From: Ignavibacteriota bacterium
GTDB lineage: Bacteria > Bacteroidota > Ignavibacteria > UBA10030
NCBI GenBank assembly: GCA_963727825.1
Contig: CAVSHO010000009.1
Coordinates: 128,001 to 192,000, forward strand
Direction: 5' to 3'
Length of the DNA stretch: 64,000 nt
In this document: piece by piece, positions 12,374 through 39,387 of the stretch
Layout of the letters: the number at the start of each line of letters is the position of its first letter
Numbering within the stretch: position 1 is the first letter of the stretch
Made by a program: the position numbers and the translations under genes
The notes under the pieces: generated by a model
The model's input: the letters and a program-made list of their open reading frames with translations, nothing else
Told to the model about the DNA's origin: nothing
The model's database searches: none

Positions 12374-12517
12374 GTAGAGACGTTCAATTGAACGTCTCTA
12401 CAAAAGATTTGTTTGGCTTCGTTGGTTCACGGAGTTTAGGCAACAGTGTAGAGTCCAGTCACCGACTGGACTCTCTCTTTTGCCTTCATATTTTCCGATC
12501 TGGTGATCGGACTCTAC
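12374..12517. repeat. GTAG-type REP-like palindromes
   Basis: Perfect 28-bp palindrome GTAGAGACGTTCAATTGAACGTCTCTAC (12374-12401); inverted pair GTAGAGTCCAGTC..GACTGGACTCT (12448-12474) and TCCGATC..GATCGGACTCTAC (12494-12517), the latter overlapping the ampG stop codon. Confidence 0.8.
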
Positions 12518-38224: not shown

Positions 38225-38609
38225 CAAAAGAATTGGTCACTTGATAGTGATCTTACTTGGAGTGGCAATACTTTGCTCTCAATCCAGAAGTCAATCTGAT
38301 GCAAAGAGATTAGAACGGTTCAAACCACTTTCTTTTGAAAAGGCCGATGTTAAGGCGAGTTCAATTTCCCTCCATTAAAAGACAATCTTCGACTGTAAAT
38401 GGATTATGAATCTATTTGAAAAAGCTTTAATAATAGACAAAGGAAAGGACAGTTGAACCTCTAAATAAAAAACTCTACATTATAATAATATTAACAGGTG
38501 ATAATCTATAATAGCCTATACTAAACCTCACAAAATCATAACATAAAAGCTCTGATTTAGTTCTTTGACGAGTTAGTATAGAAGAAAAAAGTATTGATTT
38601 AGATTCGAT

Positions 38610-38661
38610 GCCCGGATGGCGAAATTGGCAGACCTGCCTGCCGGCAGGCAGGCGCGCTAGC
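38610..38661 (+). pseudogene. tRNA-Leu 5' fragment with 20-bp palindromic insert (copy 1)
   Basis: GCCCGGATGGCGAAATTGGCAGA[CCTGCCTGCCGGCAGGCAGG]CGCGCTAGC is identical to the first 32 nt of the tRNA apart from the insert. Confidence 0.9.
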
Positions 38662-38674
38662 AAGAAACGTAATT

Positions 38675-38926
38675 ATGAATTGGTTTGTCTATGCGATTCA
38701 AAGCATACAACGTAATTATATATATGTCGGATTAACTTCGGACTTAGAGAAAAGAATATCTCAACATAATAACGGTAAAGAACGAACAACGCGACCATAC
38801 AGACCATTTATATTAATACATCATGAAATGTTTGGGACTCGTTTAGAAGCAAGAAAAAGAGAAATCTATTTGAAATCTGGATGTGGAAAAGATTTTTTAA
38901 AAAATCTCTCTTCCTTAGCGAAGTGA
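38675..38926 (+). CDS. Small GIY-YIG nuclease (SLX1-like/UPF0213 size class), copy 1
   Basis: FVY..YVG motifs, conserved Arg in KRISQHN and Glu in REIYLKSG. Confidence 0.92.
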   Translation: MNWFVYAIQSIQRNYIYVGLTSDLEKRISQHNNGKERTTRPYRPFILIHHEMFGTRLEARKREIYLKSGCGKDFLKNLSSLAK

Positions 38927-38955
38927 AACCGATACCAATGTGGATATAGTAAATT

Positions 38956-39007
38956 GCCCGGATGGCGAAATTGGCAGACCTGCCTGCCGGCAGGCAGGCG
39001 CGCTAGC
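38956..39007 (+). pseudogene. tRNA-Leu 5' fragment with 20-bp palindromic insert (copy 2)
   Basis: Same sequence as copy 1. Confidence 0.9.
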
Positions 39008-39020
39008 AAGAAACGTAATT

Positions 39021-39272
39021 ATGAATTGGTTTGTCTATGCGATTCAAAGCATACAACGTAATTATATATATGTCGGATTAACTTCGGACTTAGAGAAGAG
39101 AATATCTCAACATAATAACGGTAAAGAACGAACAACGCGACCATACAGACCATTTATATTAATACATCATGAAATGTTTGGGACTCGTTTAGAAGCAAGA
39201 AAAAGAGAAATCTATTTGAAATCTGGATGTGGAAAAGATTTTTTAAAAAATCTCTCTTCCTTAGCGAAGTGA
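39021..39272 (+). CDS. Small GIY-YIG nuclease, copy 2 (identical protein)
   Basis: Same 83-aa sequence; the ORF-track extension to 38940 reads through the tRNA fragment and is spurious. Confidence 0.92.
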   Translation: MNWFVYAIQSIQRNYIYVGLTSDLEKRISQHNNGKERTTRPYRPFILIHHEMFGTRLEARKREIYLKSGCGKDFLKNLSSLAK

Positions 39273-39301
39273 AACCGATACCAATGTGGATATAGTAAAT
39301 T

Positions 39302-39385
39302 GCCCGGATGGCGAAATTGGCAGACGCGCTAGCTTCAGGAGCTAGTGATCGCAAGGTCATGGGGGTTCAAGTCCCCCTTCGGGCA
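39302..39385 (+). tRNA. tRNA-Leu (anticodon CAG), CCA not encoded
   Basis: Acceptor GCCCGGA/TTCGGGC, anticodon arm CTAGC-TTCAGGA-GCTAG, long variable arm, T-arm GGGGG-TTCAAGT-CCCCC. Confidence 0.97.
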
Positions 39386-39387
39386 CT

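Follow-up and report, generated by a model that had tools for sequence, protein, structure and literature searches.

A 20-nt palindrome retained in a clade of tRNA-nested GIY-YIG nuclease cassettes and a candidate for its recognition hairpin

The tRNA-Leu(CAG) locus

The stretch of DNA analysed here (the window, 64 kb) lies on contig CAVSHO010000009.1 of an Ignavibacteriota bacterium, whose genome (GCA_963727825.1, 3.12 Mb, hereafter G000) is a draft assembly of 14 contigs. ARAGORN detects a single tRNA gene in the window, tRNA-Leu(CAG) at 39302-39386. Directly upstream of it are two tandem units of 346 bp each (38610-38955 and 38956-39301), in which a 5' fragment of the tRNA is interrupted by a 20-nt perfect palindrome, CCTGCCTGCCGGCAGGCAGG (hereafter PAL), and is followed by a small open reading frame (ORF) for a GIY-YIG nuclease. 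PAL was located at 38633-38652 and 38979-38998 by sequence reading and pattern search; these two are the only matches in the 64 kb at up to three mismatches, and none of 100 shuffled sequences had any match. In the following, G, C and L with a number denote genomes, contigs and loci, respectively. The features of the locus are as follows.

38610-38632, + strand: tRNA-Leu(CAG) fragment, nt 1-23 (acceptor 5' strand, D-stem 5' strand, D-loop), unit 1; identical to 39302-39324
38633-38652, no strand: PAL, copy 1; exact match, 0 expected by chance; predicted fold as single-stranded DNA (ssDNA) an 8-bp stem with a CCGG loop, -8.0 kcal/mol
38653-38661, + strand: tRNA nt 24-32 (D-stem 3' strand to the end of the anticodon-stem 5' strand), unit 1; from sequence reading and the repeat family
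38662-38674, + strand: 13-nt leader between fragment and start codon; unalignable with orthologous cassettes
38675-38926, + strand: GIY-YIG nuclease ORF, copy 1, 83 aa; PF01541, E=1.2e-17
38927-38955, + strand: 29-nt spacer closing tandem unit 1; from sequence reading and repeat analysis
38956-38978, + strand: tRNA-Leu fragment, nt 1-23, unit 2; from sequence reading and repeat analysis
38979-38998, no strand: PAL, copy 2; from pattern search
38999-39007, + strand: tRNA nt 24-32, unit 2; from sequence reading and repeat analysis
39021-39272, + strand: GIY-YIG ORF, copy 2; protein identical to that of copy 1, synonymous difference at 39098
39302-39386, + strand: intact tRNA-Leu(CAG), PAL-free, the empty site; ARAGORN, and Rfam RF00005 with 53.3 bits
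39388-39426, + strand: terminator-like hairpin 3' of the tRNA, an inverted repeat with 17-nt arms followed by a T-run; putative role

Each tRNA fragment is composed, in linear order, of tRNA nt 1-23, PAL and tRNA nt 24-32, and ends exactly at the anticodon stem/loop junction, where the anticodon loop would start. The intact tRNA gene begins 29 nt after the ORF, and its first 32 nt equal the fragment minus PAL: it reads TTGGCAGA|CGCGCTAGC without interruption and thus provides an exact 20-bp empty site, with no target duplication. The insertion point is ambiguous by 1 nt, since GCAGAC|GCGC fits equally. A preliminary description of this DNA had noticed the palindrome in the D-arm of both 5' fragments and its absence from the intact tRNA, and both points are confirmed by the exact coordinates and the exact empty site. 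The absence is in itself unremarkable: ARAGORN finds no other tRNA-Leu(CAG) in the assembly, and with 20 nt inserted into its D-arm this one would presumably be non-functional. PAL ends 22 nt before the start codon in both ORF copies and is found upstream only, not on both sides of the gene.

The two units differ at one base alone (A38752/G39098), at a synonymous third codon position, and encode identical proteins. Because the whole unit has been duplicated in tandem with a single base differing, the two PAL-bearing fragments amount to one observation, and the earlier suggestion that the palindrome preceded the duplication holds: one event was copied. Four public sequencing runs, kept as contigs, contain no contig that bridges both units. 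A 168-nt public contig is identical to 38504-38671, covering the upstream flank, the fragment and PAL, and may stem from the source sample. Another contig, of 258 nt and derived from an RNA library, aligns to 38539-38787 with 13 differences and has the common variant CCTGCCTACC...; it comes from a relative and is no evidence of transcription at this locus. The public runs with matches share at most 0.32 of words, so that no habitat is claimed.

Insertion of the cassette into a conserved tRNA gene

When a 2.4-kb query spanning the locus was compared with the genus, its flank and tRNA were matched in all 15 congeners, whereas the cassette part was matched among the 16 genus genomes only in G000 and G007, the latter having two loci. 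All nine congener loci that were read have tRNA-Leu(CAG) directly after the upstream region, with an uninterrupted D-arm and without a cassette. The cassette is an insertion into the tRNA-Leu(CAG) locus. In G012 (L208), a likely relic of a cassette lost from the same tRNA gene lies about 60-100 nt upstream of tRNA-Leu(CAG); it is a decayed piece, GGCAGATGCGCTAGCTT, with a PAL-like hairpin (CCCGCCTG...CGGCAGG) in front of it.

The ORF product is a GIY-YIG catalytic domain alone, PF01541 spanning residues 2-68 of the 83 aa. Its closest solved structures are the UPF0213 proteins 1ywl (E=3.9e-7) and 1zg2 (E=1.3e-4), and the only NCBIfam hit, to the model of group I intron endonucleases, is sub-threshold (20 bits; cut-off 56). 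Throughout the clade described below, the alignment shows conservation of the Y..Y-x-G, R, H/N and E positions, which we take to have their usual roles. The SsnA-like proteins, two from this genome and one from L050, are separated in the tree from all tRNA-nested proteins with support of 100/100; the window protein is 35% identical over 66 aa to the SsnA-like protein encoded on C7.

The palindrome in the close nuclease clade

All cassettes whose protein is at least 59% identical to that of the window carry PAL in an intact or decayed form, 22-29 nt upstream of the start codon:

G007, contig 30: protein 80% identical; PAL 20/20, at the same position
G007, contig 3: protein 72% identical; PAL split by a nested 16-nt hairpin
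G026: protein 64% identical; PAL 19/20
G039: protein 59% identical; PAL with one substitution and a 1-nt deletion
L161 (a metagenome-assembled genome, MAG, of Chitinophagales, found via PAL): protein 64% identical; PAL 20/20

This close clade has a support of 98/88 in the tree, and six of its six distinct proteins are linked to PAL; for the proteins of the tree set outside the PAL groups, PAL is within reach in 0 of 35. The cassettes of the clade occupy tRNA-Leu(CAG) or tRNA-Leu(CAA), and in L161 the palindrome is at a different position of the D-loop (GGCGAA|PAL|ACTGG). In three other genomes, orthologous cassettes have PAL at the same place. Between G000 and the orthologs, synonymous divergence (dS) is 2.5-3.0 or not computable because of saturation, the ratio of nonsynonymous to synonymous rates (omega) is 0.05-0.10 (about 0.05 against the G007 ortholog), and the leaders are unalignable. 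PAL is retained at 18-20 of its 20 positions despite these saturated synonymous sites. Neutral DNA of that age would be randomised, and therefore PAL has not been evolving neutrally. Frameshifting of the ORF and interruption of PAL are each seen once in the clade, and in the same cassette (G007, contig 3), a single case. In the ten cassettes with a 5' fragment that were read, including those outside the clade, PAL ends 16-29 nt before the start codon.

Hairpins of the other cassettes

The 61 genomes of the same order (G000 included) were queried by protein, not by PAL. Matches were obtained in 56 of the 61, and the best 30 loci and one further locus of G007 were read. Among 31 cassette rows from relatives, a tRNA piece split by a hairpin is present at the equivalent place in 29 (counted by eye), and the hairpin is PAL or a variant of it in four, or five with contig 3 of G007. 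The two exceptions, L174 (G023) and L183 (G060), are in a non-tRNA context; their mini GIY-YIG genes are bracketed by the inverted repeat CCCCGTGAGAT...ATCTCACGGGG within what appears to be another gene. The census of this hairpin in homologous cassettes that the preliminary description had proposed thus gives a divided answer, 27 of the 31 rows being without PAL, 29 having some hairpin there, and the close clade always having PAL. Tandem arrays are also seen among the relatives. At least 11 mini GIY-YIG matches are arranged in tandem at G002:C2:365045-368233, with a spacing of about 298 bp, and at least five at G019:C9:1492199-1493957, with a spacing of about 305 bp and one double gap; tandem amplification as in the window is therefore common in the group.

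In G000 itself, mini GIY-YIG genes are also linked to the tRNA genes Leu-CAA, Ser-GGA, Ser-GCT, Gln-TTG, Pro-CGG, Pro-GGG and Asp. Each of these cassettes keeps one intact tRNA together with a partial copy, in which the D-, anticodon- or T-loop is split by a hairpin starting 10-30 nt from the ORF, and these hairpins differ from PAL (e.g. GTCCCGACAAAGTCGGGAC, TCCCGAAGGGACTCCTTCGGAGGA). At tRNA-Leu(CAA) on contig C12, the nuclease belongs to a different protein clade and the hairpin is GTCCCGACTTTGTCGGGA instead of PAL, the cassette reading GTCCCGAC... at this place. In cassettes of the opposite layout, where the tRNA is followed by the ORF and a 3' fragment, about 10-20 nt separate the stop codon from the first hairpin. 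The hairpin is thus dissociated from the tRNA in both directions: on the same tRNA another protein clade has another hairpin, and the same clade has PAL on another tRNA or at another position. Such cassettes are found outside the window at seven tRNA loci of this genome (C12:40089-40388, C8:159673-159991, C7:93996-95100, C10:74914-75500, C13:67499-67818, C1:4162-4540 and C11:153720-154230). Their ORFs begin 0-140 nt behind an intact tRNA or lie downstream of a tRNA fragment, and several are truncated or contain stops.

Dispersal of the palindrome

PAL is not confined to the cassettes. The genome of G000 contains nine PAL sites at up to two mismatches, five of them exact, and PAL occurs in 37 of the 61 genomes of the order, with the highest counts being 53, 37 and 16 (0-2 for a reversed control pattern). 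One genome per prokaryote species was scanned and yielded at least 123 PAL loci, the proportions given below referring to the matches listed. By our estimate, a given 20-mer palindrome is expected about 0.5 times by chance in 596 Gb. The hosts among the matches listed include Patescibacteria of many classes, Omnitrophota, Bacteroidota with cultured isolates among them, Planctomycetota, Pseudomonadota, Bdellovibrionota, Thermodesulfovibrionales, Chloroflexota and others. PAL is also carried by 40 stretches of viral contigs. The 20-mer is found in genomes of cultured isolates and in complete MAG chromosomes from many studies.

In a profile of 246 flanks, nothing is conserved beyond position +1 (T 41%, A 9%). 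Since the flanks share only this preference for a first-base T, the conserved unit is the 20-mer alone. When the cassette locus and a further two PAL loci were scanned with Rfam (E <=1), no family covered PAL; the hits were the tRNA and one sub-threshold match to a small RNA elsewhere. Among the 123 loci listed, an intact tRNA lies within 300-400 nt of PAL at 13 and a GIY-YIG gene at six. When the 20-mer was removed in silico, the joined flanks were tRNA-like at 11 of 125 sites, running across the junction at seven, as compared with 10 of 366 controls in the same loci; for a density of 45 tRNA genes per 3 Mb of genome, the base rate of tRNA flanks is estimated at about 0.2-0.3%. A tRNA 5' fragment followed by PAL, 16-29 nt and a GIY-YIG start was found in WWE3 (L077), Giovannonibacteria (L140), Saccharibacteria (L124), a MAG of Gammaproteobacteria (L148), the Chitinophagales MAG (L161) and a viral contig (L248).

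In L028, L030, L058 and L082, the arms of PAL are lengthened by extra CCTGCC units. In a viral contig (L240, 356-447), PAL is at the variable-arm position of a tRNA-Met, which ARAGORN still calls as a 92-nt tRNA, and at a contig end of Agriterribacter humi (L126) it is in the D-loop of a tRNA-Arg(TCT) whose remainder is apparently intact. Contig C11 of G000 has four copies of a repeat of about 200 nt (80400-80700, 81450-81760, 97080-97400 and 100120-100440) with PAL at the centre (0-2 mismatches), flanked by CACG and CTC(A/G)TT and then by a further hairpin, GTCCGAGGGACTCCTTC...; Rfam has no family for the two copies lying in L004. The apparently solitary copy at C9:246864 forms the initial 20 nt of a longer insertion, of 81 nt, missing from four congeners. 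There is also a 203-bp element resembling a miniature inverted-repeat transposable element (MITE), with seven copies of 95-99% identity (C9:311186-311389, C9:928817, C9:36532, C7:89221, C11:58562, C1:394261 and C1:256407). Its ends are inverted repeats, TTATCCCAAA...TTTGGGATTA, and internally it contains a module in which GTAGAGTC is combined with a PAL-like hairpin (CCCGCCTGCGTCGGGCAGG) and CGATCACCAGATCGG.

Interpretation and alternative explanations

PAL may well be a conserved, non-neutral signature hairpin of this clade of nuclease cassettes and serve as its recognition element, an interpretation that we tentatively favour. The compact cassette would consist of a hairpin, 10-30 nt of tRNA-derived sequence and the gene for a single-domain GIY-YIG nuclease of about 80 aa, living within tRNA transcription units in which one tRNA is kept whole and a truncated copy is plugged by the hairpin. 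In the window, one cassette would have entered tRNA-Leu(CAG), with the 5' part of the tRNA (nt 1-32) duplicated and PAL in its D-loop; later, the whole 346-bp unit would have been duplicated in tandem, which gives PAL in both fragments. By analogy with Ssn, described below, PAL would be the hairpin that this clade of nucleases binds, presumably on ssDNA, and the scattered solo copies in this and other genomes would be its dispersed sites. Of the three roles offered in the preliminary description, that of a cis-element or recognition site is the best supported, though by sequence comparison only: PAL is kept in six of six clade members, on two tRNA-Leu isoacceptors, at two D-loop positions and across saturated synonymous sites.

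Various observations weigh against this interpretation. Seven of the nine PAL sites in G000 are far from any tRNA or GIY-YIG gene; a GIY-YIG gene is absent within 300-400 nt at 117 of the 123 cross-phylum loci listed and within about 1.5 kb at 37 of 38 PAL loci in relatives. In G035 (53) and G032 (37), which have the highest PAL counts, the nuclease is without a close homolog, the best matches being about 40% identical and accompanied by other hairpins. A second, distant pair of GIY-YIG proteins (L077, L148) also uses PAL, and in L050 it is in the loop of a hairpin adjoining an SsnA-like gene, so that PAL is not specific to one protein clade. The symmetry of PAL is perfect, and its flanks contain no oriented conserved sequence, whereas the NTS motif of Ssn requires its oriented flank for cutting. 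L161, L077 and L148 were found via PAL and are therefore unfit to test the link, which leaves four relatives' cassettes found by protein, and the conservation of PAL could stem from re-insertion or gene conversion by other copies. The genome-level count of PAL correlates with that of mini GIY-YIG genes (rho 0.42) no better than with that of Y1 transposases (rho 0.43); with genome size also correlated (rho 0.28) and the genomes being kin, this co-occurrence was rejected as evidence.

Many of these observations would be expected if PAL were an independent, tiny mobile or copy-prone hairpin that lands in the loops of ssDNA stem-loops, is moved by something outside the cassette and finds truncated tRNAs to be neutral landing pads, an explanation that we consider doubtful but still a serious possibility. 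The unit is discrete, with its unconserved flanks and the clean empty site in the tRNA, and most of its copies are solo. PAL lies within an outer stem of at least 6 bp at 20 of the 123 listed sites, as compared with 57 of 920 control positions in the same loci (odds ratio 2.9, p=3e-4). It occupies the loops of other repeat hairpins (L031, L033, L035, L050, L059, L132), is itself invaded by the nested hairpin in contig 3 of G007, and appears at several loop positions of tRNAs, namely at various places in the D-loop, where the anticodon stem meets its loop (L148) and at the variable-arm position (L240). Two tRNA-linked copies are without any ORF (L041, L044), and the decoy tRNA pieces of G000 gather several unrelated hairpin families. 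An independent hairpin does not readily account for the fact that the hairpin on one tRNA type varies with the protein clade while one clade has PAL at different sites. No candidate mobilising gene was found: Y1 transposases are present in 53 of the 61 genomes, but none is beside a PAL site of G000 among the matches listed. A consistent transposition footprint is lacking as well, and the solo copy at C9:246864 begins a composite insertion rather than being a bare 20-mer. Two candidates were examined and rejected in this connection. Target-site duplication fails as a footprint, since abutting 7-bp direct repeats occur at only four of the 123 listed sites, at least two of them inside heptamer tandem repeats. 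As to a Y1 transposase as the partner of PAL, the sole adjacency (G038, G046) is to an apparently truncated or disrupted gene, with PAL inside or just after it. The passenger role considered in the preliminary description is partly borne out: PAL is indeed a dispersed element with most copies far from tRNA and GIY-YIG genes, but its evolution in the clade is not neutral-like.

The remaining explanations are less probable. PAL might act in RNA, a GC hairpin about 20 nt before the start codon protecting or defining the 5' end of the nuclease mRNA or preventing mispairing between fragment and tRNA, with the hairpins after the ORF in the opposite layout being 3' stabilisers. The clean 8-bp stem and the regular spacing to the start codon in the ten cassettes, or from the stop codon in the opposite layout, would suit such a role, as would the location of the ORF between the tRNA promoter and the tRNA, where presumably no separate promoter is needed. 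We regard it as improbable, since structure alone leaves unexplained why the 20-mer is exact across phyla and present in hundreds of copies outside genes, and the 65-nt leader as a whole folds no better than shuffles (z=-0.74). A mark that prevents recutting, as the preliminary description had suggested, is less credible still; PAL would confer immunity by splitting the nuclease target in the used copy. Only 9 nt of native tRNA separate PAL from the junction with the ORF, so that a site spanning the D-arm and the anticodon arm would be destroyed, and a hairpin is found at the corresponding position in all cassette clades; however, an intact, unmarked tRNA stands beside the nuclease gene in every cassette read, so that the full presumed target persists, and the solo copies are left unexplained. 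That PAL is a chance palindrome or an assembly artefact is hardly believable. The assembly is a draft, palindromes and tandem repeats assemble poorly, and both units are bridged by no public contig, but shuffled sequences gave no match, the same 20-mer recurs in isolate genomes and complete chromosomes of many studies and at the same place in orthologous cassettes of three other genomes, and the 168-nt public contig is identical across the fragment and PAL.

A bolder interpretation, unlikely in our judgement, would regard PAL and its sister hairpins as a new class of minimal mobile DNA of about 20 bp that is written into the loops of ssDNA stem-loops by single-domain GIY-YIG nucleases. Hairpin and nuclease gene together would then be the smallest known self-propagating cassette, using tRNA genes as safe harbours that are universal and conserved, and thereby crossing phyla, possibly via phages, a route for which the viral contigs with PAL give the basis. 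If the link between hairpin and nuclease holds, a 20-base hairpin and an 80-residue nuclease would make up a DNA module, selfish or regulatory, that is among the smallest known; it would range from ultra-small Patescibacteria to Bacteroidota and Proteobacteria and reshape tRNA loci through split copies and tandem arrays. For annotation, the cassettes account for recurrent loci of a broken tRNA plus a hypothetical protein, and for a 20-mer shared by unrelated assemblies.

Comparison with known systems

The UPF0213/YhbQ proteins (1ywl, 1zg2) resemble the window protein in size and in having a single domain, and are its best sequence matches among solved structures. Both structures were deposited as hypothetical proteins, a literature search for UPF0213/YhbQ together with GIY-YIG returned nothing, and we know of no hairpin or tRNA link for this family. 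In the literature searched, subscription journals and supplements being outside its scope, no description of a pairing of GIY-YIG gene, tRNA fragment and hairpin was found, and the PAL 20-mer and two 15-mers from it were not found in full text. The pairing of a dispersed hairpin with tRNA-lodged mini nuclease genes seems to be undescribed there.

Seg proteins have DNA-binding domains beyond the catalytic domain. The window protein differs in that it has 83 aa and Pfam finds the catalytic domain only; to our knowledge, neither a hairpin signature nor a split tRNA copy accompanies Seg genes. On the other hand, a GIY-YIG gene wedged among tRNA genes is common to both: SegB, a GIY-YIG homing endonuclease encoded among the tRNA genes of phages T4 and T6, reportedly promotes segmental amplification (PMC13096335), and this is echoed by the cassette arrays, with two units here, at least 11 in G002 and at least five in G019 at a spacing of about 300 bp. 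Like a homing endonuclease gene, the cassette varies in presence and absence at a conserved site, G000 and G007 being the only carriers among 16 genomes. Unlike such a gene, it leaves its carrier with an intact presumed target, the tRNA-Leu(CAG) 29 nt after the ORF.

Repetitive extragenic palindromic (REP) elements with their REP-associated tyrosine transposases (RAYT), and elements of the IS200/IS605 type, are characterized by short, dispersed, GC-rich palindromes that cluster and nest, by the lack of target duplication and by a logic of ssDNA hairpins; a GTAG head is typical of REP elements. PAL is likewise short, dispersed and GC-rich, clusters and nests, and is inserted without target duplication. 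Some copies follow a GTAG(A/G)(A/G)TC head (L003, L019, L021), and the 203-bp MITE-like element has its PAL-like hairpin behind GTAGAGTC, as in REP elements, but the head is missing at the tRNA copies of PAL and unseen in the profile of 246 flanks. G000 has nine matches to the Y1 transposase family (PF01797), and no PAL-flanked Y1 transposase gene was found among the six of the nine whose coordinates were checked; the gene linked to PAL encodes a GIY-YIG nuclease, not an HUH enzyme. Apart from PAL, G000 has perfect palindromes of 28-30 nt, GTAG(A/G)GACG...CGTC(T/C)CTAC, at many sites, such as C7:32727, C8:183939 and C9:140374 (12374-12401 of the window).

The closest parallel in layout is Ssn. 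SsnA is a 94-aa single-domain GIY-YIG enzyme of the CDD family cd10448, which binds the NTS hairpin and cuts beside it, on ssDNA only; NTS-type motifs, of which there are hundreds of copies, are found in the flanks of 71% of SsnA homologs (Chenal et al., 2025, PMC11893778, main text). A term search of that main text, supplements being outside it, did not find "tRNA", "CCTGCC" or "GGCAGG". G000 itself holds an Ssn system beside its tRNA-nested cassettes: an SsnA-like GIY-YIG gene has ATTCCCGCGTACGCGGGAAT 25 nt upstream, and NTS/SRM-like repeats, ACTCCCGCGTACGCGGGAGT and cgtcattcccgcgaaagcgggaatccag, the latter fitting the published NTS consensus, are arranged in multi-hairpin clusters (the Ssn-related places are C7:171149-171390, C8:109420, C9:74404, C9:858520, C12:61819 and C14:46560-46605).

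The PAL cassette differs from this system in several respects. The window protein falls outside the SsnA-like group of its own genome (100/100) and has its nearest solved relatives in UPF0213. PAL is unrelated to ATTCCC-N8-GGGAAT, being a perfect palindrome without the oriented flank of the NTS/SRM motif, and its cassette lies within tRNA genes, where a tRNA piece has been duplicated and is split by the hairpin. With this motif absent and membership in cd10448 doubtful, we describe the cassette as Ssn-like in layout and do not file it as an Ssn member. What the two share is a single-domain GIY-YIG protein of about 80-95 aa (83 aa here) and a specific GC-rich hairpin near its gene, with the same hairpin dispersed genome-wide and spread across phyla. 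If the link between PAL and the nuclease holds, the principle of Ssn, in which a tiny GIY-YIG enzyme reads one ssDNA hairpin, would reach a second protein group with another hairpin and would offer another sequence-specific ssDNA nuclease for tool building.

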